A stretch of 64,000 bases of DNA from positions 27,683 to 91,682 of the forward strand of contig JBGQFX010000005.1 of assembly GCA_041497135.1 (NCBI GenBank), in the 5' to 3' direction. This DNA comes from Gemmatimonadota bacterium. Lineage in GTDB: Bacteria > Gemmatimonadota > Gemmatimonadetes > Gemmatimonadales > GWC2-71-9. Position 1 is the stretch's first letter. Each line of letters starts with the position of its first letter. Below the pieces are notes generated by a model, which searched no databases, was not told the DNA's origin, and was given only the letters and a program-made list of their open reading frames with translations. Made by a program: the position numbers and the translations under genes. This document shows, in pieces, positions 18,935 to 38,073 of the stretch.

Positions 18935-18949
18935 CCGAGGAGACCGGCC

Positions 18950-20275: not shown

Positions 20276-20784
20276 CGGCGCACGCCGTGTTGCACCGGCG
20301 CCTGCACGTGCGCCTCGACGAACCACAGCCACTTGTCGATGCCGCGCGAGATCTCGGTGCAGATGTCCGCGCTGCCGGCGTCGCCCAACTCGTCGGTTTC
20401 GTCGATCGCCTTGCGGATGCGCGACCCGAATTCCGCCAGGGCGCCCGCGAAGGCGCCGGCATGGTCCGCGCCATCCGCGATGGTGCGCGGGTAGTCGGTG
20501 AGCTCGGTGCGTCCGGCGACCATTCGGACCGTGCCTTCCGCGATGCCGCCGACCTGCACCACACGCTCGGCCAGGAGGTCCGCGTACTCGCTCACTGCGG
20601 CGCGCACTTCGTCGAACAGCTTGTGCAGCGCGATGAACTGCGGACCCTTCACATTCCAGTGTGCCTGCTTGGCTTGTGAGGCCAGATCCACGGCGTCTGC
20701 CAGACGCTCGTTCAAGAGATCGGCGACCTGCGCCCGGGTGGTCTCGGGGAGATCGTTGCTGGTTTCGTACACGATGCTGGACAC
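20272..20784 (-). CDS. dps: Dps (DNA starvation/stationary-phase protection) ferritin-like protein
   Basis: QAKQAHWNVKGPQFIALHKLFDE...AERVVQVGG...DE.DELGD..SADI. GGAGG SD before the GTG. Confidence 0.9.
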   Translation of the reverse strand: MSSIVYETSNDLPETTRAQVADLLNERLADAVDLASQAKQAHWNVKGPQFIALHKLFDEVRAAVSEYADLLAERVVQVGGIAEGTVRMVAGRTELTDYPRTIADGADHAGAFAGALAEFGSRIRKAIDETDELGDAGSADICTEISRGIDKWLWFVEAHVQAPVQHGVRR

Positions 20785-20949
20785 GTTGGCCTCCGGGGTG
20801 ATCGACGCTAGGTCTCTGCGTAGCCGAACGGTGCCTGTTTGTGTCTGAGGTTATTGCCAATCCTCGATGAGGAATTCGTGCTGTCGCTGGACCGGTTGCC
20901 CCGAGCTTGTCGCGTGGGCATTATTTGCGGGTCCACTCGAGAGCAAGGT

Positions 20950-22851: not shown

Positions 22852-24643
22852 CGCGACGCCGGCCGTGGCCGAGCGCGCCGCGATCGACACGCTGCTAGGA
22901 GCCCCCAGCTCCGGTTGGGACGGCGGCCCCCGCCAGGCTCGCGACGCGCACACCGCCCAGGGCGGCCACGCCGCCCGCGGCCAGCGCCACCTGCTGTTGC
23001 CGGCGCTCGAGGCGGTGCAGGCACGCGTCGGCTGGATCAGCCCCGGCGCCTTCAACTATATCTGTGAGCGTCTGACCGTTCCCCCCGCCGAGGCGTATGG
23101 AGTGGCCACGTTCTACGCGCTGCTGCCTACCGTGCCGCGGCCGGCACGGGTGGTGCACGTATGCGACGACATCGCGTGCCGGGTGAAGGGTTCTGCCAGG
23201 CAGTTCGCGGACGGCTGGCTCCACAGTCCGTGTCTCGGTCTGTGCGATCAGGCGCCGGCCGCGCTGCTCATAGAAGCGGGCGAGAGTCCGGTCGAGCGGC
23301 TATTCGGGAACGCGACCGCGGCCTCGATCACGCAGGTGATGAAAGGCGACCTCGGCCCGACGACCGTGCCGCGCCTCCGTCTTCCGCAAGCGGGCGACCC
23401 CTCGCTACAGATCCTGCGCCGCGTCGATATCATCGATCCCTCGAGCCTGGACGACTACAAAGCCCATGGTGGATACGACGCGCTGCGACGGGCGATCGAG
23501 CTCGGCCCCGAAGGCGTGATCCGCGAGGTGACTGATTCCCGCCTGATGGGGCGGGGCGGCGCCGCGTTCCCGACCGGCAGGAAGTGGGACGCCGTCGCCC
23601 GCCAGCCGGTCCGGCCCCATTACCTGGTCTGCAACGCCGACGAGTCGGAGCCGGGGACGTTCAAGGATCGCGTCCTGATGGAATGTGATCCGTTCAGCGT
23701 CGTCGAAGCGATGACGATCGCGGCCTATGCGACCGGGTGCGAGCGCGGGTTCATCTACCTGCGGGGCGAGTATCCGCTGGCCCGCGAGCGGCTGCAGCAC
23801 GCCATCGACGCGGCGAAAAGCCGCGGCCTGCTGGGCGATGCCGTGATGGGGCAGTCCTTTGGGTTCGACATCGAGATCCGTCGCGGCGCCGGCGCCTACA
23901 TTTGTGGCGAGGAGACCGCGATTTTCAACTCGATCGAGGGATTGCGCGGCGAGCCCCGCAACAAGCCGCCGTTCCCGGTCCAGGCCGGGTTGTTCGGCAA
24001 GCCCACCGTCGTCAACAACGTCGAAACCCTGGTCAACGTGCTCGAGATCCTCCGCCTCGGCGGGCCCGCCTACGCGAAGATCGGGACCGAGGGCTCGACG
24101 GGCACGCGGCTCTTCTGCCTCTCGGGATGTGTGACGCGTCCCGGCGTGTACGAAGTGCCGTTCGGCATCACGTTGCGACGGCTGCTTGATCTCGCGGGTG
24201 GCGTGGCCGGAGGCCGGAAGCTCCAGGCGATCCTGTTGGGCGGCGCGGCCGGTGTGTTCGTGCGTCCCGACGAGCTCGACTTGCCGCTCAGCTTCGAGGG
24301 GGCGCGGGCGGCCGGCGCGACCCTGGGCTCCGGTGTGGTCATGGTTTTCGACGACACGGTCGACATGGCGGACATCGTGCTTCGCATCGCGGCGTTCTTC
24401 CGCGACGAGTCCTGCGGGCAGTGCGTGCCCTGCCGGGTGGGCACGGTGCGACAGGAGGAGGCGTTGCACCGGCTCACGCGCGGCAGGCCGCGGGGCGGGG
24501 TGAAGGGAGAGCTGGCGTTGCTCGAGGAGATCGGGGTCGCGATGAAGGACGCGTCGATCTGCGGACTGGGACAGACGGCCTACAGTGCGGTCGAGTCGGC
24601 CGTCAAACGGCTAAACCTGTTCGACGGAGCCAAAGGCCGATGA
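22832..24643 (+). CDS. NAD-reducing diaphorase subunit: NuoE-like (FdsG) fused to NuoF-like (FdsB)
   Basis: The N-terminus carries the 2Fe-2S pattern VCDDIAC...SPCLGLC. This is followed by GRGGAAFPTGRKW, YLVCNADESEPGTFKDR, GAGAYICGEETA and ESCGQCVPCR (FMN/NADH/4Fe-4S motifs). The TTG start overlaps the fdh catalytic gene end. Confidence 0.9.
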   Translation: MDLRLPDATPAVAERAAIDTLLGAPSSGWDGGPRQARDAHTAQGGHAARGQRHLLLPALEAVQARVGWISPGAFNYICERLTVPPAEAYGVATFYALLPTVPRPARVVHVCDDIACRVKGSARQFADGWLHSPCLGLCDQAPAALLIEAGESPVERLFGNATAASITQVMKGDLGPTTVPRLRLPQAGDPSLQILRRVDIIDPSSLDDYKAHGGYDALRRAIELGPEGVIREVTDSRLMGRGGAAFPTGRKWDAVARQPVRPHYLVCNADESEPGTFKDRVLMECDPFSVVEAMTIAAYATGCERGFIYLRGEYPLARERLQHAIDAAKSRGLLGDAVMGQSFGFDIEIRRGAGAYICGEETAIFNSIEGLRGEPRNKPPFPVQAGLFGKPTVVNNVETLVNVLEILRLGGPAYAKIGTEGSTGTRLFCLSGCVTRPGVYEVPFGITLRRLLDLAGGVAGGRKLQAILLGGAAGVFVRPDELDLPLSFEGARAAGATLGSGVVMVFDDTVDMADIVLRIAAFFRDESCGQCVPCRVGTVRQEEALHRLTRGRPRGGVKGELALLEEIGVAMKDASICGLGQTAYSAVESAVKRLNLFDGAKGR

Positions 24644-25605
24644 GCGCCCTGGTCCGCATCGAGCCGGTCCGCCGCACGGTCGAGCTCACGATCGACGGCG
24701 AGAAGGTGCGCGCGCCCGAGGGCTCGACGATCCTCGACGCCTGCCGCCAGCGTGGCCAGTCGATCCCAACGTTGTGCTACATCGACACGTTGCACCCGGT
24801 CAACGTGTGTCGCGTATGTGTTGTGGAGGTCGAAGGCTCGCGCGTGCTCGTCCCGTCCTGCTCGCGCAAGGTCGAAGCCGGGATGGTCGTGAAGACCGAC
24901 AGCGAGCGGGTGCGGCACAGCCGCAAGATGGTGCTCGAGTTCCTCGCATCGTCGGTGGACCTCTCGACCACGCCGGACGTCGCCGGATGGCTCACCGATT
25001 ACGGGGCCGACCCGGAGCGGTACGGGCCGCCGGCCACGAGCGACGGGCGTGACGCGGCGCAACCGGGTCACCATGCGCCCCCGGACCCCGATCGCCGGGC
25101 GACCGTGGCGCAGCCAACGAAGATCGACAACGATCTCTACATCCGCGACTACAAGAAGTGCATTCTGTGCTACAAGTGCGTCGAGGCGTGTGGCTCGGAT
25201 TGGCAGAACACGTTCGCGATCGCCGTAGCGGGGCGGGGGTTCGATGCGCGCATTTCGACCGAGTTCGCGACCGAGCTTCCCAAGTCGGCGTGTGTCTATT
25301 GCGGCAACTGCATCGCGGTGTGCCCCACGGGTGCTTTGATGCCGAAGAGCGAATTTGATCACCGGGCGGCGGGCACGTGGGATGAATCGCGCCAGACTGT
25401 TACGCGCACCGTATGTCCCTATTGCGGTGTGGGGTGCAACCTCGAGTTGCACGTGCAGGACAACACGATCGTAAAGGTCACCTCGCCCCTCGATCACGAT
25501 GTGACCAGCGGCAATCTCTGCATCAAGGGGCGGTTCGGCTGGGAGTACGTCCAGAGCCGGGCTACGCCTCCCACTCCGGACGGTCGGAAAAAGAAGAAGC
25601 GCTAG
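24640..25605 (+). CDS. NuoG-N-terminal-like Fe-S protein, equivalent to the N-terminal third of an FdsA/FdhF alpha subunit (2Fe-2S, 2x 4Fe-4S, MopB Fe4S4 motif)
   Basis: ELTIDGEKVRAPEGSTILDACRQRG...CRVCVVEV; CILCYKCVEACG; CVYCGNCIAVCP; TVCPYCGVGCNLELHV...GNLCIKGRFGWEYV. It ends with the basic tail RKKKKR. ATGA overlap with the preceding gene. Confidence 0.85.
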   Translation: MSALVRIEPVRRTVELTIDGEKVRAPEGSTILDACRQRGQSIPTLCYIDTLHPVNVCRVCVVEVEGSRVLVPSCSRKVEAGMVVKTDSERVRHSRKMVLEFLASSVDLSTTPDVAGWLTDYGADPERYGPPATSDGRDAAQPGHHAPPDPDRRATVAQPTKIDNDLYIRDYKKCILCYKCVEACGSDWQNTFAIAVAGRGFDARISTEFATELPKSACVYCGNCIAVCPTGALMPKSEFDHRAAGTWDESRQTVTRTVCPYCGVGCNLELHVQDNTIVKVTSPLDHDVTSGNLCIKGRFGWEYVQSRATPPTPDGRKKKKR

Positions 25606-26453
25606 AGCGACAGTCGCTCGGGGTGGGTATAGACCGTGAGGCGGTCCCGGCGCGCGAAGCCGACCAGCGTCAGTCCCGCCTGCTCGGCCAGGCGCACGGC
25701 CAGGCCGGTCGGACCCGAAATCGCGACTAACAGCGGTGCGCCGAGCACCGTCGTCTTCTGCACCATTTCGAAGCTTGCCCGGCTGGTGACGATCACGAAC
25801 CCATCGTGGGGCGTGACGCCACGCCGGAGCAGCGCGCCGATCAACTTGTCGAGCGCGTTGTGCCGGCCGACATCCTCCCGTACCAGTTCGACCGTGCCGT
25901 CGCGACGAGCCCAGGCCGCGGCATGCACTGTGCCGGCAGCGGCGTTCAGCTGCTGCTGCTTCGTGAGGGAGTCGAGCGCTGCCTCGATTGCCGGGCGAGC
26001 AACCGTCGTACCCTGCGACACCGGGTGCAGCGTCTTCAGGACCGCGTCGATGCTGTCGGTGCCGCAGATTCCGCATCCCGTGCGTCCGGTGAGGCGACGT
26101 GAGCGGGTGGCGATCACGGCCTCGCATTCGGGCGGAACCGTGGCCTGCACTTCAATCCCCTGACCGTAGCGCACGACCTTGATGTCGCCCAGGTCGGTCG
26201 CTGTGCGAATCAGCTCCTCCGTGATGCTAAACCCAACGATGAAATCTTCCAGGTCGGCAGGCGTCGCCATCATCACGACGTGCGGGATGCCGTTATAGAC
26301 GAGGACTACTGGCGTTTCTTCGACGATTTGCTCTGCGCGCTCCTGGACCTGGCCGTCCCGCCATTGGCGGGCCTGGAGCTCGAGCAGCGGCCCGGCATAG
26401 CCGAGGCGTTGCAGGCCGAGCGGGTGTTGCATCTGGTTGAGATCGGCGGGCAT
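25602..26453 (-). CDS. fdhD: formate dehydrogenase accessory sulfurtransferase FdhD
   Basis: ...LTGRTGCGICG...VHAAAW...EDVGRHNALDKLIGA...VTSRASFEMVQK... Confidence 0.9.
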   Translation of the reverse strand: MPADLNQMQHPLGLQRLGYAGPLLELQARQWRDGQVQERAEQIVEETPVVLVYNGIPHVVMMATPADLEDFIVGFSITEELIRTATDLGDIKVVRYGQGIEVQATVPPECEAVIATRSRRLTGRTGCGICGTDSIDAVLKTLHPVSQGTTVARPAIEAALDSLTKQQQLNAAAGTVHAAAWARRDGTVELVREDVGRHNALDKLIGALLRRGVTPHDGFVIVTSRASFEMVQKTTVLGAPLLVAISGPTGLAVRLAEQAGLTLVGFARRDRLTVYTHPERLSL

Positions 26454-26555
26454 GGGGCAAGTATAACGGGCCTACGCTGCAGGAAGGCTCTAAGGTGGCC
26501 TTCAGCCGCGACGACGGCTTGTCGCCGCTCCGCTACGGCCCATACCTTATCCACC

Positions 26556-26834
26556 ATGACGGCTTGGCACTCGGACCTCCCCGCCGCCGATCTGATCTCG
26601 GCCGGGCTGGCGGACCTGGAACGTGGAGTCGCGTCGGTGCCCGCGCTGCTCGTCTCCATCGGCGCCCCGCGCCTCGCGACGCTCGGCGTGTCCGTGCCGC
26701 GTCCTCTCTCGGATCCCGAGCGGCGGCTGTACGAGCTCCTGCGGCAGAACGACCCCGACGCCGCCCACTCGCGCTACAATGCACTGGTGCGCCGGCTCGT
26801 CAGCTTCGAGCGCGCGCTCGCATGCGCGCCCTAG
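26556..26834 (+). CDS. small helical hypothetical protein (92 aa), upstream partner of a nucleotidyltransferase-fold gene
   Basis: ATG 26556. Its end overlaps the next gene's ATG by 13 nt. No motif I can name. Confidence 0.45.
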   Translation: MTAWHSDLPAADLISAGLADLERGVASVPALLVSIGAPRLATLGVSVPRPLSDPERRLYELLRQNDPDAAHSRYNALVRRLVSFERALACAP

Positions 26835-27343
26835 CGGGCGGCGACGGCATCCGGCGGTTCATGCAGGCACTTGCCGCCGAAGCGCGCCAGGACGCGCGTG
26901 TTTACTTCACGGGCGGCGCCACGGCGGTGCTGTCGGGCTGGCGAGACAGCACGATCGACGTGGACCTCAAGCTGGTTCCCGAACAGGACGCCTTGCTGCG
27001 CGCCATCCCGGCGCTCAAGGAGTCCCTCCAGCTCAACGTGGAGCTCGCGAGTCCGGCCGATTTCATCCCCGTGCCTCCCGGATGGGAGGATCGCAGCCCC
27101 TTCATTGAACGGCTGGGCCGCGTCTCGTTCCATCACTTCGATCTTTACGCGCAGGCGTTGGCGAAGGTGGAGCGCGGTCATGCGCAGGACGTGGCGGACG
27201 TGCGCGAGATGCTGCAACGGGGGCTGGTCGACTCTGGCCGGGCGCTGGAGTATTTCGGTCGTATCGAGCCCGAGCTGTACCGCTATCCGGCAATCGACCC
27301 GCCTGCCTTCCGGCGAGCGGCCGAGCAGGCCTTCGGGAGCTGA
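26822..27343 (+). CDS. minimal nucleotidyltransferase-fold protein (DUF6036-like), hypothetical
   Basis: VYFTGGATAVLSGWRDSTIDVDLKL (hGG-x9-R-x-T-x-DVD NTase signature), followed by a helical C-terminus. Confidence 0.55.
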   Translation: MRALAGGDGIRRFMQALAAEARQDARVYFTGGATAVLSGWRDSTIDVDLKLVPEQDALLRAIPALKESLQLNVELASPADFIPVPPGWEDRSPFIERLGRVSFHHFDLYAQALAKVERGHAQDVADVREMLQRGLVDSGRALEYFGRIEPELYRYPAIDPPAFRRAAEQAFGS

Positions 27344-27379
27344 TCACCCTAACCGTTGCCTCAACGGGCGGCGCGGCAA

Positions 27380-27419
27380 GCCCTCCCCGGGCCCTGAGGC
27401 CGAGGAGGGCTGTTGTTTT
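27380..27419. terminator. stem-loop terminator (T-run on the plus strand), shared by convergent genes
   Basis: GCCCTCC-N17-GGAGGGC followed by TGTTGTTTT. A homologous hairpin occurs at 30800-30830. Confidence 0.6.
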
Positions 27420-27791
27420 CTACCGCACTCCTACATTCACCGAGATGTTGCTGCCGTCATTCAGTAGCGCCGTGATCGCGTAGGTACCGCTGGTCCATCC
27501 CTTGGTCCCCAAGTTGAAGATGTACTGCTGACTCACTACATCGTAGCGGAAGGTGATTCCCTGATTTGGCACCGTGGACGTCACGGTTTCGTTGACGTTG
27601 CTCGGCGCGCTGTTGGACACCCTGTTCACCTGGATCGTCGCTACGGCGGTGCTCACCGGTGTCACTCCGTCCGCCAGGAAGAGCTGGAACTTCACCGGGA
27701 TCGTGGACCCGATCTTGAACACGCTCTGTGCTTGCGGCGGCGTGTTGATCGGCTGGAGGAAGCCGTGGCCTACGGCGGTGTTGTACAGCAC
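27420..27791 (-). repeat. 372-nt 3'-terminal coding module duplicated at 30870..31241
   Basis: By-eye alignment gives about 30 mismatches in 372 nt, including a 99-nt perfectly identical run (27508-27606). Flanking terminator hairpins are also homologous. Confidence 0.85.
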
Positions 27792-30554
27792 CGCAATCGA
27801 GACGCTCTTCGCCGCGGTGCTGTAGTCCACCTGGTCGTCTGGCGTGAAGCTCACGCCGAGGGGCTGCGGCCCCGGGTTCAGGATCGTGCCCGCGGGTGGT
27901 GCGTAGCTGAACGTGCCGGTGAGAGACACACCACCCACGCCGGTCGCGGTCGCGTTCAGCTGGGTGCTGCCCAACGCCTGGCCGTAGAGCATCGAGCTCG
28001 GCGGATTCCAGGTGATGAGCGGCGTTGCCTTCGCGATGGAGAAGCTCTGTACCACACTCGGCGCCGGGTTGAAGCTGGCGTCGCCGGCCTGGTCGGCGGT
28101 GATCGTGCAGGCACCTGCGCCGGTGAGGGAGACTATGTTCCCGGAGACCGTGCAGCTGCCGCTCGCCGAGAAGGTCACGGGCAGCCCAGAGGCTGCACTC
28201 GCATTGATCGCGAACGGCGGCTCGCTGAACAAATGGCTGCTCAGGGTGCCAAAGCTGATCGTCTGGTCGGCTTTGCTCATCAAAAGCCGCGTCCCGTTTC
28301 CGCCATTCCATATCCGGGCGATTTCAGCATCCGACAGCGCTCTGTTCCAGATAGCAATTTCGTCGAGAGATCCGTCGAATGAAAAATCTCTGCCGTCCTG
28401 AGCATCTCGCTTGCCAATCAGCAGTGGGTTGGGGGAGCCGATTACCACCCCCCCCGAGGGCCCGAAACCGCGCAGACTTCCATCAAAGAACAAATAGCCA
28501 GTGTTCCCGCTTTGCCGAGTGACGATTTGATGCCAGACGCCGGTGGTAACCGTTCCCAGGGAGAGGGAGGCCGTGGTGTAAGTCCACCCGCCAGGCCCGC
28601 AGCAACCTGTCCACTTCTCGATAAGCGCTTGCTCCCGATAGTTGATGTTTGTGTTAAACCAAACCTGGACAGTGTTGTCGCCGGACACGAGATCGAAAGC
28701 GGGGTCGTTCGTCGGTTGTTGTGCGTAGGAGTCGTTATTGCCTGGCAGGACGAGCGCCTGCCCCAGCAGTCCGGGGCCGAATCCTGCACCGCCAAACAGG
28801 GACAGATTCCGCCCGTTGCCGGATGCATCGTTCGCGGTTCCTTCGAAAGGCCAGTAGCCGAGAAGGCCAGTGGTGATTGTCTGGTTGTTGCCCGTGTGGT
28901 AGAGGGCTGCGATTTCGACTCCAGACAAGGCGCGGTTGTAGATCTCCGGCTCGTCAATCTCCCCGTTCAGGTGTGCTCCCTGGAGGATGTACGAGCCGAA
29001 ACGAAGGTTGGCCGAATGAGAATCGAGGAAGGCTGGAACGGGGGAACGGGTGTCTTCCAGGACTCCGTTGACGTACAGCGAGAAGCTACCCGAGCTCTTG
29101 ACGGCGGCAACGTGGTACCACACGCCGGTCACCGCGTGCGTGGTACTGAATAGGGTGTAGGCAGGGTCATAACACCGGTTGCCCGACCCGCCACCGAAGC
29201 AGAACCAGAAACGGTTGTCAACCTGCTTCAGGAGGCGCCAGCCATCGGTGTCCACCCCGTTGGCGGACATTTTATCCACGATGGACTCATCACCGCCCCA
29301 ATCGCTACTAAGCGAGTTGAACAGCACCCATGCGTCTACCGTGAAGTCGCCGCCTGAGACCTGAAGGTTTGGCGCATTGCCGACGTCGACGTAGTCATCG
29401 ATGCCGTCCAAGAGGAACGCCTGTCCCACCCTGCCTGAAGCGAACGTGGCGCCGTTCTCCAGCGTGCCATCGTTGCCATCCACAACATCATTCGCGCTTC
29501 CGTCACCCGGCCACCGACTGACTGGACCCGTGCTCGCTGCCGCGGGGGTGAACGCCTCGACCGCCGCGACGAAGTTGCCTGGGCTACTTGACCCACCCAT
29601 GACGTAGAGCGAGCCATTCACCACGCCCACTGCTGGAGCGAACTGGGGTGCAGGCAGCGAGGCGACTGAGGTCCAAGTATCGGTCGCCGGATCGTATGCG
29701 TCGACCGTCGATAGCATGCTGCCGTTGTACCCGCTCACCGCATAGAGCACGCCGTTTACCACTCCCACGCCGGAGCCGTACCGAGGGACAGGCAGGGATG
29801 CCTTTGTGGTCCACGTGTCCGTTCCAGGGTTGTAAGCCTCGACCGTCCCGAGGAAACCGCCGTCGTATCCCCCCACCGCATAGAGCACGCCGTTTACCAC
29901 GCCCACCGCCAGGTCCTTTCGCGGTGTCGGCATCGATGACTTGGTGGTCCACGTGTCGGTACTAGGATCATAGGCCTGGACCGTCCCGACGATGTCGGAG
30001 GGGTTGTTACCGGGGCTGGTGTATCCACCAACGGCATAGAGCACACCATTCACTACGCCCACTGCAAGGCCTGAACGTGGCGTCGGCATCGACGCTTTGG
30101 TACTCCAAGCGTTCGTGCCGGGGTCATAGGCCTCGACGGTCCCGAGTTGGGTGAAACCGTTATTCATTCCACCAACCGCGTAGAGTACACCATTCACCAC
30201 GCCCACTCCGACAAAATCCCCTCGCGGAGTCGGCATCGATGTCTTAGTGGTCCAGGCGTCGGTACTGGGGTCATAGGCCTCGACCGTCTCGACAAACGTG
30301 CCAAAGTTGTTCCCCCCCACGGCGTAGAGCACACCGTTCACAACGCCTCCCCCGAGCCCATCCCTTGGCACTCCCATCGGAGTCTTCGTGGTCCACATAC
30401 CGCTGCCGGGGACAATCTGGAAACTGGGAGTCAAGTTCGGCGGGCCCGCTGGGGATGACACATCCCGGTTGCACCCGAACAACACAAGGCTGACCGAAGT
30501 CAGCACGGCCAGCGCACTCAGCCGCGACAACTCCCGTGGGCTCACTCGATGCAT
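27420..30554 (-). CDS. giant lipoprotein: Kelch-repeat propeller + two LamG-like jelly-roll domains + Ig-like domains + conserved C-terminal ~122-aa module
   Basis: Lipobox LVLFGC after MHRVSPRELSRLSALAVLTSVS (ATG 30554, AGGAGG SD). About six VVNGVLYAVGG...YDP.T..W Kelch blades. LamG-like segments (AFLLDGIDDYVDVG...FTVDAWV; ...GSLDEIAIWNRALS). C-terminal ...GSTIPVKFQLF... Confidence 0.8.
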   Translation of the reverse strand: MHRVSPRELSRLSALAVLTSVSLVLFGCNRDVSSPAGPPNLTPSFQIVPGSGMWTTKTPMGVPRDGLGGGVVNGVLYAVGGNNFGTFVETVEAYDPSTDAWTTKTSMPTPRGDFVGVGVVNGVLYAVGGMNNGFTQLGTVEAYDPGTNAWSTKASMPTPRSGLAVGVVNGVLYAVGGYTSPGNNPSDIVGTVQAYDPSTDTWTTKSSMPTPRKDLAVGVVNGVLYAVGGYDGGFLGTVEAYNPGTDTWTTKASLPVPRYGSGVGVVNGVLYAVSGYNGSMLSTVDAYDPATDTWTSVASLPAPQFAPAVGVVNGSLYVMGGSSSPGNFVAAVEAFTPAAASTGPVSRWPGDGSANDVVDGNDGTLENGATFASGRVGQAFLLDGIDDYVDVGNAPNLQVSGGDFTVDAWVLFNSLSSDWGGDESIVDKMSANGVDTDGWRLLKQVDNRFWFCFGGGSGNRCYDPAYTLFSTTHAVTGVWYHVAAVKSSGSFSLYVNGVLEDTRSPVPAFLDSHSANLRFGSYILQGAHLNGEIDEPEIYNRALSGVEIAALYHTGNNQTITTGLLGYWPFEGTANDASGNGRNLSLFGGAGFGPGLLGQALVLPGNNDSYAQQPTNDPAFDLVSGDNTVQVWFNTNINYREQALIEKWTGCCGPGGWTYTTASLSLGTVTTGVWHQIVTRQSGNTGYLFFDGSLRGFGPSGGVVIGSPNPLLIGKRDAQDGRDFSFDGSLDEIAIWNRALSDAEIARIWNGGNGTRLLMSKADQTISFGTLSSHLFSEPPFAINASAASGLPVTFSASGSCTVSGNIVSLTGAGACTITADQAGDASFNPAPSVVQSFSIAKATPLITWNPPSSMLYGQALGSTQLNATATGVGGVSLTGTFSYAPPAGTILNPGPQPLGVSFTPDDQVDYSTAAKSVSIAVLYNTAVGHGFLQPINTPPQAQSVFKIGSTIPVKFQLFLADGVTPVSTAVATIQVNRVSNSAPSNVNETVTSTVPNQGITFRYDVVSQQYIFNLGTKGWTSGTYAITALLNDGSNISVNVGVR

Positions 30555-30799
30555 ACATCCCTCCTGGGAATTTGGGTTGGGCACGGCTGCAGCTGTGGGC
30601 TAGGCCCGTTGTGTCGCAAACCACGGCGCTGATCCACGTGCGCTGTTCGCATGCTTACGCTGTTTCTCGCCCTTGCGGCTCTTCTAGACTCTGTGCCATT
30701 AGACCCGCCCCCGTGACACCAGTGGAACGTCGGTGGGGCACGCCAGACGCGAATTCGAACGGACCGCGCGCGACGGTGGGGAGCTTCGACTGACAGAAC

Positions 30800-30830
30800 A
30801 GCCCTCCCCGGCCTGAGGCCGGAGAGGGCT
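30800..30830. terminator. stem-loop downstream of the second Kelch lipoprotein gene
   Basis: AGCCCTC-CCC-GGCC-TGA-GGCC-GGA-GAGGGCT, homologous to the 27380-27410 hairpin. No clear T-run on the minus strand. Confidence 0.45.
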
Positions 30831-30869
30831 GCCACGGTCAGCCGCGACTACCTATAGGTGCTTGGCTTG

Positions 30870-31241
30870 CTACCGCGCTCCTACATTCACCGTGATGTTG
30901 CTGCCGTCATTCAACAGCGCGGTGATCTGGTAGGTCCCGCTGGTCCATCCCTTGGTGCCCAAGTTGAAGATGTACTGCTGACTCACTACATCGTAGCGGA
31001 AGGTGATTCCCTGATTTGGCACCGTGGACGTCACGGTTTCGTTGACGTTGCTCGGCACGCTGTTGGACACCCTGTTCACCTGTATCGTCGCCACGGCAGT
31101 ACTCACGGGCGTCACGCTGTCCGCCAGGAAGAGTTGGAATTTCACAGGAATAGTGGAGCCGATCTTGAACACGCTCTGTCCTTGCGGTGGGGTGTTGATC
31201 GGCTGGAGGAAGCCGTGTCCCACGGCGGTGTTGTAGAGCAC
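30870..31241 (-). repeat. 372-nt 3'-terminal coding module, copy 2 of 27420..27791
   Basis: See the copy 1 entry. The encoded 123 aa differ at only a handful of positions. Confidence 0.85.
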
Positions 31242-33431
31242 AGAGAAGGTCTGCTGGACGCTCGGCGCCGGATTGAAGTGATCGTCGCCGCCCTGATCGG
31301 CGGTGATGGTGCAGGAGCCGACGCCGGTAAGGGAGACGGTGCTCCCGGAGACCGTGCAGCTGCCGCTCGCCGAGAAGCTCACGGGTAGGCCCGAGGATGC
31401 GCTCGCGCTGATCGTGAACAGTGGATCGCCGAAGGTTCGGTTGCTGAGTGTGCCGAAGGTAATTGCCTGATCGGTCTTGGTCGGCGCGGGGACGGTTATG
31501 CGGCCGATCTTGTTCGCGCCGCTCTCGTTGAACCACAGGGCCCCATCAGGTCCGGCGATAATGGCGGAAGGCCCGCTGCTGGCCGTGGAGACGGGGAATT
31601 CGGTGATGACGCCGGCGGTGGTGATCCGGCCGATCTGGTTTGCGGGGTACTCGGTGAACCAGAGGGCGGCATCCGGCCCCGCAGTTATGCCGAAAGGCCC
31701 GCTGCTAGCCGTGGGGGTTGTGAATTCGGTGATGACGCCAGCGATGGTGATCCGGCCAATCGTGTTGCCGTGCGGAACGGCTGCACCGTCAAGCGGTGCG
31801 GACTCGGTGAACCAGAGGGCGGCATCCGGCCCCGCAGTTATGCCGAAAGGCCCGCTGCTGGCCGTGGGAATTGTGAATTCGGTTATCGCGCCGCCGGTGG
31901 TGATTCGGCCAATCTGGTTGCCGTTGAACTCGGCGAACCAGAGGGCGCCATCCGGTCCCGCGGCAATACCGAGAGGCCGGCTAGCGGGCGTCGGAATGAC
32001 GAATTCGGTGATGACGCCGGCGGTGGTGATCCGGCCGATCTGGTTGCCGAACTGCTCGGTGAACCAGAGGGCGCCGTCGGCCCCGGCAGTGATACTTAGG
32101 GGAAAGGCGCCGGCCGTGGGGACGGCGAATTCGGTGATGGCGCCGGTCGTGGTGATCCGGCCAATCGCGTTGGAGCCCTGTTCGGCGAACCAGAGGGCGT
32201 CATCCGGCCCCGCAGCAATGTTCAAAGGCACGCTGCCAGCCGTGGGGACGCTGAATTCGGTGATGACGCCGCCGGTAGTGATCCGGCCGATCGTGCCGCC
32301 CTGTTCGGTGAACCAGATGGCGCCGTCCGGCCCTGCGGTGATGCCGAAAGGCACGCTGGCCGTGGGAATGGGGAACTCGCTGAAGTTCCCCGCGGTGGGT
32401 GCTGGGGTGAAGGCCTCGTTTGTCGAAACCGTCACCAGGCCGCCGCCCTCCGCGGCATTCCCCCCCACGACGTAAAGCACACCGTTGATCCCCTGTGGCT
32501 GCGTGGAGAAGCGAGCAGTCGGGATCGGTGCCAAGCTCGTCCAGCTGTCGGTCGCCGGATCATACGCCTCAACTGTGTTGACAACGCCAGGCCCGCTGCC
32601 AGTCCAGCCGCCCACTGCGTAGAGAATGCCGTTTACTTCACCGACGCCAATACTTATTCGTCCGGTCGGCATTGGGGTCTTGGTCGCCCACGTATCCGTG
32701 GCAGGATCGTATACCTCAAGAGCAGCACTACCATTGACTGAAGTCTGGTCGGTCTGACCTCCGGCGACGTAGAGTTTTCCATTGATGACTGCAGCTCCGG
32801 CCCGCAGGCGAGCCGTGGGCATCGGGGCCTTGGTCGCCCACGTATCCGTAGCCGGATCGTATGCCTCCAGCGTGGCGAAAGGAGGGCAGCCTAAGTGATC
32901 GCAGGGAGCTCCCCCGACAACATAGAACTTCCCCCCTATAGCTCCCGCCGCTGATTCGAAGCGCGCTGTGGGCATCGGGGTCTTGGTCGCCCAATGATCG
33001 GTCGCCGGATCATAGACTTGGAGTGTGTTGTGCGGCGCACTACATCCCGGGGCGCATCCGCCCGCGATATAGAGCTTGCCAGCGATAGTCGCAGCGCCGA
33101 ACTCCGCCGCCGCTGCCGTTGGCATGCCAGCCCCCGTGGCCCACGCATCGGTCACGGGATTGTATACGATGACCGGGCCGCCGAAGCTCAGGTTATTGAC
33201 CAAGTACAGGTTCCCGCTAATGACCGCACTTGCAAAGCAGCAGGCGGAGGGCTCGGGGGTCCTAGTCGTCCAGGTGCCGCTGCCGGGGAGTATCTGGAAA
33301 CTGGGCTTCGGGGTCCTCGGTCCCGTGAGGGAGGACTCCTCGCGGTTGTCACTGCAACCCGCCAACGCCAGGCCAACCAATGCCAGCGCCATCGGGGCGA
33401 TCCATCCCACCGACTGTCGTGTGCGAAACAT
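30870..33431 (-). CDS. giant lipoprotein: Kelch-repeat propeller + seven-bladed Vgb(virginiamycin B lyase)-like propeller + Ig-like domain + the same C-terminal ~122-aa module
   Basis: Lipobox LALAGC after MFRTRQSVGWIAPMALALVG (ATG 33431, GGGAGG SD). Kelch blades (GKLYVAGG...YDPATDTWATK). Seven repeats of F.IPTA.S.P.GITAGPDGALWFTE...N.IGRITT.G.ITE. Confidence 0.8.
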   Translation of the reverse strand: MFRTRQSVGWIAPMALALVGLALAGCSDNREESSLTGPRTPKPSFQILPGSGTWTTRTPEPSACCFASAVISGNLYLVNNLSFGGPVIVYNPVTDAWATGAGMPTAAAAEFGAATIAGKLYIAGGCAPGCSAPHNTLQVYDPATDHWATKTPMPTARFESAAGAIGGKFYVVGGAPCDHLGCPPFATLEAYDPATDTWATKAPMPTARLRAGAAVINGKLYVAGGQTDQTSVNGSAALEVYDPATDTWATKTPMPTGRISIGVGEVNGILYAVGGWTGSGPGVVNTVEAYDPATDSWTSLAPIPTARFSTQPQGINGVLYVVGGNAAEGGGLVTVSTNEAFTPAPTAGNFSEFPIPTASVPFGITAGPDGAIWFTEQGGTIGRITTGGVITEFSVPTAGSVPLNIAAGPDDALWFAEQGSNAIGRITTTGAITEFAVPTAGAFPLSITAGADGALWFTEQFGNQIGRITTAGVITEFVIPTPASRPLGIAAGPDGALWFAEFNGNQIGRITTGGAITEFTIPTASSGPFGITAGPDAALWFTESAPLDGAAVPHGNTIGRITIAGVITEFTTPTASSGPFGITAGPDAALWFTEYPANQIGRITTAGVITEFPVSTASSGPSAIIAGPDGALWFNESGANKIGRITVPAPTKTDQAITFGTLSNRTFGDPLFTISASASSGLPVSFSASGSCTVSGSTVSLTGVGSCTITADQGGDDHFNPAPSVQQTFSVLYNTAVGHGFLQPINTPPQGQSVFKIGSTIPVKFQLFLADSVTPVSTAVATIQVNRVSNSVPSNVNETVTSTVPNQGITFRYDVVSQQYIFNLGTKGWTSGTYQITALLNDGSNITVNVGAR
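31485..32384 (-). repeat. seven tandem ~126-nt coding repeats (propeller blades)
   Basis: Blades 5 and 6 share an identical FT.PTASSGPFGITAGPDAALWFTE stretch. The corresponding DNA is near-identical over about 75 nt (about 31655-31730 vs 31805-31880). Confidence 0.75.
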
Positions 33432-33496
33432 ACGTCCTCCCGCTCCAGTGGAATTGTGATGCGATGACGCAGCAAGGACCGCCTTGCTATCCCCAC

Positions 33497-33521
33497 GAAC
33501 GACGCGGATGTTTGCTCCGTC
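33497..33521 (+). promoter_or_regulatory. candidate ECF-type promoter GAAC-N17-CGTC
   Basis: acGAAC gacgcggatgtttgctc CGTCt lies about 49 nt upstream of the sigma-factor GTG. This is the general ECF -35/-10 pattern (GGAAC...CGTC). Confidence 0.35.
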
Positions 33522-33569
33522 TCCGTCCGCTAGAGTCACTTAGAGATCTGTGCCTCACCACAGGCGCTC

Positions 33570-34184
33570 GTGACACCCCCGGAGCGTTCCTCCGCCCCGA
33601 TTGAGAGCGTCGCCGCCGCGGCGGTCGAACTCCACTGCCTCCGCGACGGCCTGCGCATCCTCGCCTTGCGCGCGCTGCGCGACGCCGATGCCGCCGAGGA
33701 GGCGGTGCAGGAGACCATGGCCCGCGCCGTCCAGGCACTGCGCGACGGGCGGCTGTCCGATCCGGCAAAGCTTGGAGCGTACGTCGCGGGAATCGCGCGG
33801 CACGTGTTCTCCCATGCCCGTCGCGATCAGAAGGCGACCGTGTCGCTCGAGGTCATGCCGCCCGAGACCGGTGTCGCCGCCGGCCCCGATCCACTCGAGG
33901 CGCTCATTACCGCCGCCGAGACCGACCGGTTGCGCCGGGCGTTCGGGGCTCTCTCGGGTGAAGACCAACGGCTGCTGCGGTTGTGCTTCTACGAGAACCG
34001 GTCACCAAGCGAAGTGGCCGCGGCCCTGGGCGAGCCAGCCGAGCGCGTACGCAAGCGCAAGTCCCGTGCGCTGGATCGCTTGCGTCGGGCGTTCCTGGGA
34101 GAGGAGCCCGGTCACGGCGTCGGCAATTCTGGCACAACAGGACAGGAAGCACCGGGAGGGAAGAAGGAGCGCGAACCGGTATGA
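33570..34184 (+). CDS. ECF-type RNA polymerase sigma-70 family factor
   Basis: Region 2 (AEEAVQETMARAVQALRDG...GAYVAGIARHVF) and region 4 HTH (LRLCFYENRSPSEVAAALGEPAERVRKRKSRALDRLR). Confidence 0.85.
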   Translation: MTPPERSSAPIESVAAAAVELHCLRDGLRILALRALRDADAAEEAVQETMARAVQALRDGRLSDPAKLGAYVAGIARHVFSHARRDQKATVSLEVMPPETGVAAGPDPLEALITAAETDRLRRAFGALSGEDQRLLRLCFYENRSPSEVAAALGEPAERVRKRKSRALDRLRRAFLGEEPGHGVGNSGTTGQEAPGGKKEREPV

Positions 34185-34894
34185 TCGATAAGCACGGACC
34201 CGAGGATGCTCCGGAGCGCTACGCAGCGGGCCTGCTGAGCGCCGCCGAGGCGCGGGCGTTTGAAGACCACCTGGTGGTGTGCGCGCGGTGCCAGACGGAG
34301 GTGCGGCTTGCGGTCGGTGTGCGGCGCGTCGCGCGCGCTGCGACCGGCCGCTCTCGTCGCCAGCGGATGAGGCTTATCGCCGGCGCGTCACTCGGTCTCG
34401 CGGCCGGGCTTGCCGCACTGCTGCTATGGCCACGCGGTCCGAATCGGGAGGTCACCGCGCTGGGACGCGTCCGCGAGCCGCCGGCCTACCTGGGCCTCGC
34501 CGTCCGGGCGGCGCCGCGCGCCGGCGACTCCCTGTTCGCGGCGGCGATGGATGCGTACGTGACGCAGCGCTATGACGTGGCGGCCGCCGGGTTGCGCGCG
34601 GCCCTCGCCGCCGGGGTAGACACGGTGCCCGCCGAGTTCTTTCTCGCCGCGGCGGAGCTGATGCGAGGGAAGCCACGTGAGGCGGTCGACGGCTACGCAC
34701 AAGTGATAGCCGCGGGGGACGCGGCTGCTCCTTATCTGCCTGAGGCCCACATGTACCGCGCACGAGCATCGCTCCAGCTTAGCCGCGCGCGTCAAGCGCT
34801 CGCCGACCTCGAAGCGGTCCTGCGTTTTGGTGGCGCCGATTCGAGCTCGGCCCGCGCCCTCGCCGATAGCGTGCGGAAGGCGATGCGACGCTAG
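34181..34894 (+). CDS. anti-sigma factor (zf-HC2 N-terminus, one TM, periplasmic TPR-like domain)
   Basis: FEDHLVVCARCQ (Hx3Cx2C), TM MRLIAGASLGLAAGLAALLLW. ATGA overlap with the sigma gene. Confidence 0.75.
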   Translation: MIDKHGPEDAPERYAAGLLSAAEARAFEDHLVVCARCQTEVRLAVGVRRVARAATGRSRRQRMRLIAGASLGLAAGLAALLLWPRGPNREVTALGRVREPPAYLGLAVRAAPRAGDSLFAAAMDAYVTQRYDVAAAGLRAALAAGVDTVPAEFFLAAAELMRGKPREAVDGYAQVIAAGDAAAPYLPEAHMYRARASLQLSRARQALADLEAVLRFGGADSSSARALADSVRKAMRR

Positions 34895-34950
34895 CGCTCG
34901 TCCTGCTCGCCACGGGTGCCCTCACCGCCCAGACCCCGCCGCACGATTCC

Positions 34951-37900
34951 TTGCGTGCCGCTCGGCTGCGTCTCGCCGCCATCGAGCAGCGGACCGTGCT
35001 GAACGAGGACAGCGCGCTGTCGCTATACCGTGCAGCGATCGCCGCCGACTCCGAGTATCTCCCAGCACAATTCGAATACATCACCATGATGCGCGGCGAC
35101 TTGTTTCGCGGGCCGGAGCTTACTCGGGAGTACGGCGCCTCGGCTGGGCACATAGGGATCCATGGGTGCCTCGCCGCCGCCACGTCAGGAGCGAACGATA
35201 TCGGGCGGCCGATCACTCTGCTCCTCGCCCTCGAGCGCCGCGCGGGGCTCTCGTCGTGTACCGACATCTTTCTGATCGCCTGGTCTCAGTTCCGTGAAGG
35301 ATCACCGGAGGGGCTGCGTGACGGATTGGCGCGCGGCGCGCGTCTCGTCCGGGAACTTCCAGAGGTGTCCAACGTGTGGTCGTCATACGCCAGTCGCCTG
35401 GCCGCGGCCGGCCGCGCTGGCGAGGCGGAGCGCGTGCTGCGTGAAGGGATCGCGCGCGTCGCAGATCCGTTTGCCCGATTCAACATGATGGGAACGCTGG
35501 GCGGATTCCACTTGAGTCAAGGAGACACAGCTGGCGCTGTCGCCCTGTGGCGAGCGGCTCGCGATGCCGTTCTGCGCGATGGCCGTCCGCGTCTCGAGGC
35601 TCAGTATCTCTCGGGTGTATGCGATGGTGCCTGGCTCTCGGACCCGACACCCGCCGCGCGGGAACGCGCCTGCCGCGAGCAGCTCGCGATCCTCCACGCG
35701 CACCATGCCTGGCTCTCGGAATGGGGTGACGCACGCAATCGTGGACACGTCCTGGTCGATCGCGGCTTCTTCGCAGCCGCCCTTCTGTACCTCAATCGAG
35801 CGGTGGCGCTGGCGGACAGCGTCGGCACGCCGGGCCTACGCCTGATAGCGCACAATGAGCGTGGGCGAGTGTACTCGAAGCTCGGCCGGCTGGCGCTCGC
35901 TGAACGGGACCTGCGGCTGGCCATCGCGGCGGGGGCGACGGCCGATGAGCCGTATTACCTAGCCGAAGCCTACCACAACCTCGCGCACACTTACGAAGGA
36001 GCGGGCCGCTTCGCGGAAGCGGCGGGCGCCGCCGATACGTTCGCGGCGCTCACCGCCCCGATGCGCTGGAACCCCGAACGGATGATCAGCCGCTACGACG
36101 CCGGGACGATCCGCTGGAAGGCGGGGTGGCACGCCGCGGCAGCCAGAGACTTCGCCGCGATGGTGCGGATCGTCGATGAGCAAGGCGTGTCGCAGTACTT
36201 CGCGGGGGAGTACTATGAGCGCGTCGGCGACTTGGGCCGCGCGTTGCGGTACTACCGTGACGGCGCGCGCATCGACAACGAGCCCCGCAGCCTGGCCGCA
36301 CTCGCGCGCCTCTACGAGGCGCTCGGCCTACCAGACAGTGCGGCAGAAGTAGCCAGGCTGCATGACGCACGGCCGATGAAGTGGACGATCCTCGAGGGCC
36401 CCTTGCTGCCCGGCGTGCTGGCGAGGCGGGGGCGGCTCTCAGAAGCTATCGCGCTGAGCGAGGGATGGGCGCGCCAGGAACTACTCAACGGAAACGTGGA
36501 GGGCGCCGCCGCGGCCAACCTCCAGCTCGCCCAGTTCCAGCTCCAAGACCATGAGCCTGGGGCGGCCCTCACCTCCGCCACGCGAGCCGACAGCTTGAGC
36601 CGCACGCTGCACCTCACGGGCGAGAGCATCAAGGCGTGGAGGCTCGAAGGGCGTGCGCTGCTCGAGACAGGGAAGCGGACCCAGGGGATGGCCGCCCTAC
36701 GGGAGGCGGTGTCGCTCGCGCGGGCCCATCCCACCGCGGCAGAGTTGTTGGAGACCGACCTCGCGCTCGGCGACGCATCGCGGACGGGCGGCGACCCCGC
36801 GGCCGCACTCGCGGCGTACGACCGCGCCGCCGCGGTGACCGAGCGTCTGACGGCCGGACTCGAGGACGATCCCGATCGCACCGGGTTTCGTGCCCTACAC
36901 CTGGCCCCATTCGACGGCGCGCTCCGCATCCTGCTCCGTCCGGGGGCGGCGTCGTCGGCGGACGCCGCGCTGCGCTGGTCGGCACGACGCAAGGGAGCCG
37001 CACTCGTACTCGCAGGTCTCCCGACGACGGCCCTCCATCCACCTTCCGCGAATGACATCCACGCGACTATCGGTCGGGATGAGGCGCTCGTCGACTACAC
37101 CGTGCTCGATTCGGGAGTCACGGCGTTCGTCGTCGGTCGTCGCGGGGCGACAATCGTGCCGCTCAGCACGCCTCTGGCCCGGCTGGCCTCGTGGACGGAA
37201 GCCATTCGGCGCCCGCTCGTGGCGGCCCCGGGCGGGCGCGTGGATCTCGCCCACGCACGCTTCGACATCGCGGCGGCGGAAAGTCTGTTTCGCGCGCTGG
37301 TGGCGCCGCTCACGGAGGCGCTTGGCAGCGCCCGCCGCCTGGCAATCATACCCGATGGCTTGTTGTGGTATGTGCCGTTTCCCGCGCTCGTCGTGGACTC
37401 AGCCTACCTGATCGACCGCTACGAGGTCCGTTTGCTGCCCTCCGCACAATTCCTCACGGTCGCGTCCCAGCACGGTACCCTTCCCACACGGTTTCATGTT
37501 CTCGCGATGAGCTACGACGTGCCGGGCGGCGCCGCGGAGGTCGCAAGGGTTCGGAATGCGCTTGGGGCGGGGCAGGTGCAGACGCTGGAGGGGGGCGCCG
37601 CGACGGAGCACGCGGCCCTCGAGGCTTCGGTAGACGTCCTCCATCTGGCCGCGCACGGTCTGGTTGATGATCGGGATCCTCTCGCCTCTCACTTGCGCTT
37701 GGCGCCCGACCGACGAGACGACGGTTTGTTGCACGTCTCGGAGATCGCGGCACAGCGGCGCGTCCCCCGACTGGTGGTGCTCAGCGCATGCGAATCGGTG
37801 AGCGGACGCCTGTATGCGGGAGAGGGTCTGGTGGGGTTGGCGCGCGCCTTCTTGGTGGGGGGCGCCCGTCAGGTCGTGGCCAGTCAGTGGCCGGTGGACT

Positions 37901-38073
37901 CGAGTGCGGCAGCTCTGATGGGAGTCTTTTACGAACAGCTCGCTAAGGGCCATTCGCCTTCAGCAGCCCTACGGGAGGCTCAACTTGCGCTCAAGGCACG
38001 CCCGAATACTGCTCATCCGATCCACTGGGCAGGGTTCGTAGTGTTCCAAGGGGGGATGGCTGGCGCTCGGTGA
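34951..38073 (+). CDS. TPR-repeat CHAT-domain (caspase-like) protease
   Basis: About 650 aa of TPR-like helices, then CHAT: RRLAIIPDGLLWYVPFPAL...VLHLAAHG (His)...LVVLSACESVSG (Cys)...GLARAFLVGGARQVVASQWPV...WAGFVVFQG. The start is uncertain (first canonical start is TTG 34951; see findings). Confidence 0.8.
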   Translation: MRAARLRLAAIEQRTVLNEDSALSLYRAAIAADSEYLPAQFEYITMMRGDLFRGPELTREYGASAGHIGIHGCLAAATSGANDIGRPITLLLALERRAGLSSCTDIFLIAWSQFREGSPEGLRDGLARGARLVRELPEVSNVWSSYASRLAAAGRAGEAERVLREGIARVADPFARFNMMGTLGGFHLSQGDTAGAVALWRAARDAVLRDGRPRLEAQYLSGVCDGAWLSDPTPAARERACREQLAILHAHHAWLSEWGDARNRGHVLVDRGFFAAALLYLNRAVALADSVGTPGLRLIAHNERGRVYSKLGRLALAERDLRLAIAAGATADEPYYLAEAYHNLAHTYEGAGRFAEAAGAADTFAALTAPMRWNPERMISRYDAGTIRWKAGWHAAAARDFAAMVRIVDEQGVSQYFAGEYYERVGDLGRALRYYRDGARIDNEPRSLAALARLYEALGLPDSAAEVARLHDARPMKWTILEGPLLPGVLARRGRLSEAIALSEGWARQELLNGNVEGAAAANLQLAQFQLQDHEPGAALTSATRADSLSRTLHLTGESIKAWRLEGRALLETGKRTQGMAALREAVSLARAHPTAAELLETDLALGDASRTGGDPAAALAAYDRAAAVTERLTAGLEDDPDRTGFRALHLAPFDGALRILLRPGAASSADAALRWSARRKGAALVLAGLPTTALHPPSANDIHATIGRDEALVDYTVLDSGVTAFVVGRRGATIVPLSTPLARLASWTEAIRRPLVAAPGGRVDLAHARFDIAAAESLFRALVAPLTEALGSARRLAIIPDGLLWYVPFPALVVDSAYLIDRYEVRLLPSAQFLTVASQHGTLPTRFHVLAMSYDVPGGAAEVARVRNALGAGQVQTLEGGAATEHAALEASVDVLHLAAHGLVDDRDPLASHLRLAPDRRDDGLLHVSEIAAQRRVPRLVVLSACESVSGRLYAGEGLVGLARAFLVGGARQVVASQWPVDSSAAALMGVFYEQLAKGHSPSAALREAQLALKARPNTAHPIHWAGFVVFQGGMAGAR

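Follow-up and report, generated by a model that had tools for sequence, protein, structure and literature searches.

Uneven divergence of a shared PxKF-coding 3' module in two tandem genes for putative lipoproteins of a Gemmatimonadota bacterium suggests ectopic gene conversion

The genes tufA and tufB are an example of gene conversion. Concerted evolution of bacterial paralogues by this process has been documented in a prokaryote-wide survey (PMC6053082), and gene conversion has been described for the repeat gene families of M. tuberculosis (PMC12046097). Here we analyze a stretch of 64,000 nucleotides from a Gemmatimonadota bacterium (GenBank assembly GCA_041497135.1, contig JBGQFX010000005.1, positions 27,683 to 91,682), hereafter the window. 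According to the list of its open reading frames (ORFs), two large genes for predicted modular lipoproteins, A and B, stand in tandem, head-to-tail on the minus strand. Each ends in a segment that encodes a PxKF domain, and these final 372 nucleotides are highly similar. On the basis of sequence comparison, this identity is probably the result of concerted evolution by ectopic gene conversion between the two genes.

A and B are paralogues in a Gemmatimonadota-type family of modular lipoproteins. In this family, a lipoprotein signal and a Kelch propeller are followed by a variable center, an immunoglobulin (Ig)-like block, an optional 82-residue insert and a C-terminal PxKF domain. Gene A encodes, in order, a lipoprotein-type signal peptide, a Kelch propeller, two Laminin_G_3 domains, the Ig-like block, the insert and the PxKF domain. 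In gene B, the lipoprotein signal and Kelch propeller are followed by a Vgb-lyase-like propeller of seven blades, the Ig-like block and the PxKF domain. The features compared here, in coordinates of the window, are:

27420–30554, minus strand: gene A, 1044 amino acids, with its ATG at 30554 behind AGGAGG (enclosing ORF 27420–30584)
30870–33431, minus strand: gene B, 853 amino acids, with its ATG at 33431 behind GGAGG (enclosing ORF 30870–33539)
27423–27791, minus strand: module copy A, 123 codons encoding the PxKF domain (stop codon 27420–27422)
30873–31241, minus strand: module copy B, encoding the PxKF domain (stop codon 30870–30872)
27487–27632, minus strand: near-identical core in A (counterpart in B 30937–31082), with 2 mismatches in 146 nucleotides
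27792–28037, minus strand: insert present in A only, 82 codons (246 nucleotides), beta-rich, delimited by the difference between offsets of 3450 and 3204
28038–28278, minus strand: Ig-like block of A (DQTISFGTLS...FNPAPSV) upstream of the module (counterpart in B 31242–31482)

Including the stop codons, the two copies of the module (27420–27791 and 30870–31241) align without gaps at an offset of 3450, with 30 mismatches in 372 nucleotides (91.9% identity). The longest identical run spans 99 nucleotides (27508–27606) and lies within the core. These are exactly the figures that an earlier note on this DNA had estimated by eye. A repeat finder (300 nucleotides at 92%) and blastn (375 nucleotides at 91.7%) agree on the identity of the module, and blastn detects two copies in the window and no more. 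The copies differ at 28 codons, 22 synonymously and six nonsynonymously, and the encoded peptides are 95% identical. The earlier note had placed the highest identity at the 3' end together with its non-coding flank. This needs qualifying: identity peaks in the middle of the module, and the flanks between stop codon and downstream hairpin differ by an indel of 31 nucleotides.

Divergence between A and B is strongly uneven along the genes. Nei-Gojobori estimates of synonymous (dS) and nonsynonymous (dN) divergence were made by segment. In the Kelch region, dS is about 2.6 and therefore saturated, with 36% identity at third positions. It falls to 0.64–0.67 in the Ig-like block (dN 0.17) and to 0.30–0.32 in the module as a whole (dN 0.03). 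Within the module, dS is 0.57 over codons 1–61, zero over codons 62–94 and 0.26 over the remaining codons. The proportion of identical residues that share the same codon rises in parallel, from 40% in the Kelch region to 67% in the Ig-like block and 81% in the module. If the 30 mismatches were scattered at random over the 372 nucleotides, an identical run of at least 99 nucleotides would be expected with a permutation P of about 0.002, and a stretch of 41 codons without a third-position change with a P of about 0.001. The low dN of the module is due to purifying selection on the domain, which leaves the pattern at synonymous sites unexplained. A uniform old duplication, which the earlier note had named as a possible refutation, was looked for and is rejected, given the successive fall of dS from about 2.6 to zero.

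A second line of evidence comes from a related locus. The JGI metagenome contig Ga0483937_0019568 (2102 nucleotides; hereafter L162) encodes one B-type gene. Its Kelch region is 78.6% identical to that of B at the nucleotide level and matches A over just 58 nucleotides, and it is therefore regarded as an orthologue of B. When quartet sites were scored with an outgroup, the Ig-like block grouped B with L162 at nine sites, A with L162 at five and A with B at none. In the module, A grouped with B at 15 sites, A with L162 at two and B with L162 at one. Since the favored pair changes from B and L162 to A and B, the tree switches at the boundary between Ig-like block and module. Nucleotide identities within the module are 91.9% between A and B, 87.0% between A and L162 and 85.4% between B and L162. 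Together with the uneven dS, this switch upholds the claim, made in the earlier note, of gene conversion or cassette exchange affecting the 3' module.

Site patterns for the three taxa A, B and L162 were further analyzed with a maximum chi-square permutation test. The breakpoints were picked after seeing the data, for which the permutation allows. The patterns cluster in three blocks of the module (P<0.001), with the following numbers of unique sites:

27791–27627: 15 unique to B, 3 to A and 12 to L162
27626–27506: none unique to B, 1 to A and 18 to L162
27505–27423: 1 unique to B, 6 to A and 4 to L162

The claim of the earlier note thus needs refining in two respects. Recombination is supported, and the result resembles a mosaic of three blocks rather than the transfer of a single cassette. 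Likewise, the description as recent holds for the core, with its 2 mismatches, and does not hold for the whole module, where dS is about 0.3. As a separate observation, the changes private to B in 31077–31241 are mostly synonymous and from GC to AT, producing ACT, ATT, CCT, AAA, CAA, AGT and ATA codons in a genome with a GC content at third codon positions (GC3) of about 0.75–0.84.

The same site patterns bear on whether the identical core encodes a regulatory RNA, an antisense transcript, a recoding signal or another element acting as RNA or DNA, and is conserved at the nucleotide level for that reason without any recombination. A run of 99 nucleotides free of synonymous change inside a coding region is what such an element would leave. 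L162, however, differs from the shared sequence of A and B at 18 sites within the 121 nucleotides of 27506–27626, and the core is therefore not under constraint at the nucleotide level. We consider this explanation extremely improbable and reject it.

It is also conceivable that the tail, comprising Ig-like block, module and hairpin, was copied or acquired once, in a partial duplication after the Kelch regions had diverged. Since then, the copies would have diverged in a clock-like manner and without further conversion, the PxKF domain being held back by stronger purifying selection. Such a history accommodates the similar dS of the Ig-like block and of the first 61 module codons, which fits one older copy of the whole tail, as well as the end of homology at the hairpin and the occurrence in relatives of the same tail on different bodies. 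It leaves unexplained how 33 codons with a dS of zero could lie beside blocks in which the proportion of synonymous differences is 0.2–0.4. Nor does it account for the switch from B and L162 in the Ig-like block to A and B in the module, or for the clustering of private changes in three blocks. A single transfer is thus quite unlikely.

We also considered whether collapse or phase switching of a repeat in a short-read metagenome assembly could have produced the near-identity or the mosaic. A JGI contig from another sample (Ga0534155_0000391; hereafter L001) is 99.96% identical to window positions 17420–27629. It matches copy A exactly over 27420–27629, including all 11 positions there at which A and B differ. 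It ends inside the module at 27629, 3 nucleotides from the inferred block boundary 27626/27627, from which it follows that the repeat breaks short-read assemblies. This break, in an independent assembly of a nearly identical strain, is what an artefact would lead one to expect, and a phase switch is possible across the 99-nucleotide identical run. Against this, 30 sites differ between the copies, which are therefore not collapsed. In the flanking blocks, successive differences are at most 27 nucleotides apart and chain to the unique gene body or to the downstream flank, so that ordinary k-mers tie each block to the unique sequence on its own side. L001 also reproduces the 3' 210 nucleotides of A and their downstream flank exactly, and protein B is recorded from two NCBI contigs in the protein collection. 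A switch at the run would join the flank of B to the body of A, leaving no consistent linear map. An artefact of this kind is very improbable; a collapsed repeat, the other refutation foreseen in the earlier note, is rejected on account of the 30 differing sites and the match of L001 to A.

We therefore return to ectopic gene conversion, for which the mechanism and direction of recombination are those we infer. Non-reciprocal homologous recombination between direct repeats 3.45 kb apart would repeatedly have carried short stretches of the PxKF-coding 3' end over from one gene to the other. The expected outcome would be a mosaic in which a core of ~146 nucleotides is youngest, a 5' block carries changes private to B and a 3' block carries changes private to A. 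The core at 27487–27632 would represent the most recent conversion tract, and the homologous 3' unit would extend as far as the shared hairpin. From the sequence comparisons, we conclude that the common ancestry of the tail is probably younger than that of the gene bodies, and that more than one short-tract conversion appears to have occurred inside the module.

Several points weigh against this interpretation. One close orthologue, on a 2.1-kb metagenome contig (L162), underlies the tree test; unseen paralogues may have converted its own module, or the contig may be a chimera. A dS of about 0.3 over the module implies that only a minor part of the similarity is very recent, and an older partial duplication of the tail explains some of the dS gradient. 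An unseen paralogue of lower GC3 may have been the donor of the B-private block at 31077–31241. Finally, the linkage across the 99-nucleotide run comes from this one assembly, the other breaking at 27629.

Comparison with L162 suggests that the same repeats also mediate the gain or loss of whole genes. L162 has no Vgb propeller and, like B, no 82-codon insert. Its sequence resembles B from stop codon to hairpin and A past the hairpin, and its next gene corresponds to the downstream neighbor of A (window 26663–26901, 84–88% identity). Either gene A was lost in the lineage of L162 through recombination of the direct tail and hairpin repeats, or it was inserted in the lineage of the window. Loss or translocation of A is favored, because the Kelch divergence places the split of A and B before that of B and L162. 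More generally, provided that the L162 contig is not a chimera, close relatives differ in whether they have gene A and in whether they have the Vgb propeller, and the breakpoints fall at the shared tail and hairpin repeats (L162 1–2102 compared with window 26663–33374). In the metagenome scan, no closer orthologous tandem locus was found among the matches listed, the best of which was 80% identical and on the 2.1-kb contig.

The hairpins that bound the repeat unit are located downstream of the stop codons:

27380–27410, minus strand: hairpin A, GC-rich, GCCCTCCTCGGCC / GGCCCGGGGAGGGC, 9 nucleotides after the stop codon of A; putative terminator
30800–30829, minus strand: hairpin B, GC-rich, GCCCTCTCCGGCC / GGCCGGGGAGGGC, 40 nucleotides after the stop codon of B; flanking bases lengthen the stem

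As the earlier note had proposed, the hairpins are homologous (blastn, 36 nucleotides at 86%), and the homology between A and B stops just past them. Their pattern occurs in the window at these two sites only, with 0.3 occurrences expected by chance. When folded as RNA in context, hairpin A reaches −32.2 kcal/mol (z = −2.1) and hairpin B −53.4 kcal/mol (z = −5.3). A scan with a terminator consensus calls neither, and neither has a proper U-tract; the stem of A is followed by UUGCCGCG and that of B by UGUUCUGUC. A role as terminators is no more than plausible.

Upstream of the module, the two genes are less alike. The weaker similarity reported in the earlier note corresponds to the Ig-like block, with identities of 78% for nucleotides and 69% for amino acids (28039–28278 compared with 31243–31482); it matches no Pfam family above threshold. 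The extra segment of about 85 residues in A that the earlier note described measures 82 codons by the offset difference and has no Pfam family when the tail is scanned at expectation values (E) of up to 10; it may be MBG-like. Similar 15-mers (AGCnTCTCnATnGCG) flank it in A, and a simple deletion between them would leave the junction in B two codons longer than it is. The insert is found in most related Gemmatimonadota tails and is absent from B and L162, whose tails therefore look derived.

The central domains are unrelated, as previously claimed: two Laminin_G_3 stretches (Pfam, 1.9e-38) in A as opposed to a Vgb_lyase-type propeller (2e-112) built from seven 126-nucleotide repeats in B. Further toward the N-terminus, a predicted lipoprotein signal and a Kelch propeller are also common to both genes, the latter with 44% amino acid identity (Kelch_1, 4.5e-65 with six Kelch repeats in A and 2.7e-48 in B). 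Read by eye, the signal peptide of B ends in ..LALAGC, a canonical lipobox, and that of A in ..LVLFGC, with an atypical Phe at −2. A database protein of NCBI source (P0017) is 100% identical to residues 37–889 of the long ORF of B. In addition, a run of 58 nucleotides is identical between adjacent blades of the B propeller (31649–31706 and 31802–31859, offset 153), and the 22-residue peptide encoded by both is PTASSGPFGITAGPDAALWFTE. A recent event inside the gene, either duplication of a blade or conversion between blades, is indicated.

The module encodes the PxKF domain of NCBIfam (NF038114, short name "rightmost"). Against a cut-off of 35 bits, the module alone scores 76.1 (model positions 2–112 of 113), A scores 71.2 over residues 941–1053 and B scores 67.5. 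Both copies contain GSTIPVKFQLF, which includes the P-x-K-F motif, and in both proteins the domain is the last, extending up to the stop codon. Across an alignment of 111 sequences, P32 never varies, and conservation of K34 and F35 reaches 90% or more. NCBI already applies this name to relatives in Gemmatimonadales, Actinomycetota, Chloroflexota and Nitrososphaera. No Pfam family was found for the module in a scan at E up to 10 and no PDB relative by sequence-profile search, and a literature search on PxKF gave irrelevant matches only and no paper on the domain in the library covered.

The family is large and widespread. When 1.84 billion representative proteins were searched with a profile, there were 11,259 matches at E<=1e-3 and 4,930 at E<=1e-10, equivalent to a family of about 11,000 protein clusters at 50% identity. 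In a scan of GTDB representative genomes, which do not include the source genome, the domain was present in Gemmatimonadota (the closest, at 65–66%), Actinomycetota, Bacillota, Patescibacteria, Chloroflexota, Myxococcota, Acidobacteriota, Planctomycetota and archaea. The domains that accompany PxKF in 67 representatives include HYR (20), Kelch (9), MBG_2 (9), LCAT-type lipases (7) and MBG_3 (6), as well as YDG, PKD, RCC1 and Big; these are typical parts of extracellular proteins. As a side observation, L002 carries upstream of its PxKF lipoprotein gene a 621-amino-acid ORF (L002 1628–3493, plus strand) with a PxKF-like motif, GRTVPIKFLITPG, far from the C-terminus. The resemblance may be due to chance, or the motif may belong to a relative of the domain that is not terminal.

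AlphaFold2, supplied with the 111-sequence alignment, predicts an all-beta sandwich with a mean confidence (pLDDT) of 83.9. Foldseek searches with two models gave generic Ig-like matches only, the best being the C-terminal domain of ZirS with a template modeling (TM) score of 0.56. As a working guess, PxKF may be an Ig-like domain at the end of exported proteins that serves in binding or presentation.

The earlier note saw in the module a possible anchoring or secretion-recognition domain. On this view, PxKF would be a tag at the C-terminus for sorting, anchoring or recognition in secretion, kept uniform within each genome to fit one genome-specific partner. Its placement suits such a role: in nearly all of the best 150 representatives, no more than a few residues follow the domain. 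Of 137 representative PxKF proteins, 132 terminate in Arg or Lys, which stands immediately behind the final beta-strand (..VGxR or ..RSK). In crude tests, a C-terminal hydrophobic anchor was seen in none of these 137 proteins (P0015–P0161), and an N-terminal hydrophobic signal-like stretch in about 71%. Copies in the same genome are also often each other's closest relatives, with identities of 89–93% compared with a median of 46%. Known sorting tags, however, are bound to one machinery and one lineage, whereas PxKF domains are encoded in diderm, monoderm, patescibacterial and archaeal genomes. This breadth of envelope types and the lack of a match to any NCBIfam sorting-domain model speak against a tag for secretion or anchoring that is specific to a lineage. 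The generic Ig-like fold predicted here, the putative N-terminal lipid-anchor signals that A and B already have and the fact that no partner gene was identified also count against it. We regard the tag as unlikely.

The combination of one tail with different bodies extends beyond A and B. Among Gemmatimonadota-type proteins, it is also seen in L002 (a 610-amino-acid lipoprotein), P0015, P0016, P0018, P0026, P0031 and P0043. The tails of these relatives, consisting of Ig-like block, 82-residue insert and PxKF domain, are 66–74% identical to that of A. Residues 767–1054 of A align continuously with L002, P0015, P0016, P0018, P0026 and P0043 at 67–74%. In bacterium Bin_57_9, nucleotide homology between three loci (L034, L041 and L056) is confined to the module (415–550 nucleotides, 81–88%). 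Two genes 7.3 kb apart in a Saccharibacteria metagenome-assembled genome (CAYPFT010000004.1; L015, L030) likewise share module-only homology (455 nucleotides, 86%). Over all pairs, median amino acid identity between modules is 46%, while those within one genome reach 89–93%. It therefore seems that PxKF tails in general behave like cassettes. L143 and L114 (Ga0207681_10000432) are also listed with unrelated genomes that hold several PxKF genes and module-confined homology.

Three genes lie divergently upstream of B on the plus strand (33603–38073). They are a sigma-factor-like gene (33603–34191), a zf-HC2 anti-sigma gene (about 34214–34894) and a gene for a protein of 1040 amino acids with TPR and CHAT (caspase-like protease) domains (34951–38073). 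The same trio adjoins a Kelch-LamG-PxKF lipoprotein gene in L163 (GCA_964643845.1), with amino acid identities of 50%, 43% and 49%, and in L164 and L165, a sigma, zf-HC2 and CHAT set is likewise found ahead of the gene for the PxKF lipoprotein P0016. The set looks like a conserved neighborhood. Its recurrence suggests control of PxKF lipoproteins by an extracytoplasmic function (ECF) sigma factor, and perhaps their proteolytic processing. The genes downstream of A (17420–26453) are of an ordinary metabolic kind and show synteny with L001: a DUF6036 nucleotidyltransferase-like gene, FdhD and a formate-dehydrogenase/NADH-dehydrogenase-like cluster with molybdopterin, 51K and Fe-S subunits.

Several described systems invite comparison with the PxKF tails. 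The modules are members of NF038114 by score, PxKF motif and C-terminal place, and this membership confers a name and not a function. The C-terminal domains (CTDs) of the type IX secretion system (T9SS; TIGR04183, TIGR04131) are similar in being beta-sandwiches of ~100 residues that are strictly C-terminal in diverse exported multidomain proteins. They are not known outside lineages with the secretion machinery, unlike PxKF, which extends far beyond Bacteroidota to Bacillota, Actinomycetota, Patescibacteria, Chloroflexota and archaea. Moreover, when A, B and the module were scanned with NCBIfam at E<0.01, the tail matched NF038114 alone, and A and B have a putative N-terminal lipobox. The Ig-like domains of invasin/intimin-type and Zir proteins share the predicted sandwich of about eight strands, the closest being the C-terminal domain of ZirS (PDB 2lv4; TM 0.56, root-mean-square deviation 4.1 Å). 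As the sequences agree at 14% of positions and no PDB match reaches a TM of 0.6, the likeness is at the level of fold only, and no function is therefore transferred from the Zir-type domains.

PxKF tails might also be a widespread class of exchangeable 3' cassettes. Strict placement at the C-terminus, an almost constant final Arg or Lys and the apparent levelling of copies within each genome by recombination are what one would predict were every PxKF protein of a cell to engage a single lineage-specific partner, and the domain would then serve as a new address or docking tag used across domains of life. This is a long shot. If true, it would be of real interest: the partner could be an envelope receptor, a processing enzyme (e.g. 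the neighboring CHAT protease) or a scaffold, with a logic like that of dockerins or T9SS CTDs. For now, the locus adds recombining 3' cassette behavior in several unrelated phyla to what can be said of a large uncharacterized family. It also provides handles for its study, namely the strict C-terminal place, the terminal Arg/Lys, the within-genome similarity and the sigma, anti-sigma and CHAT neighborhood in Gemmatimonadota. On a practical level, the module repeat explains why short-read assemblies break at this locus, as in the JGI contig that ends in the module.

With respect to recombination, the locus is a clear though unremarkable instance of a process already known, affecting a domain that is already catalogued; gene conversion here is a textbook example and does not change the field. 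Blastn of the window found no silent cassettes and thus no sign of a programmed antigenic-variation system. As in documented cases of ectopic gene conversion, the paralogues are closer to each other within the tract than either is to the orthologue, the flanks give discordant trees, the tracts are short and mosaic, and the direct repeats are a few kilobases apart. In contrast to those cases, a single domain-coding 3' segment and its hairpin are homogenized here while the rest of the genes is unrelated or saturated, and the youngest tract is short, at about 150 nucleotides.

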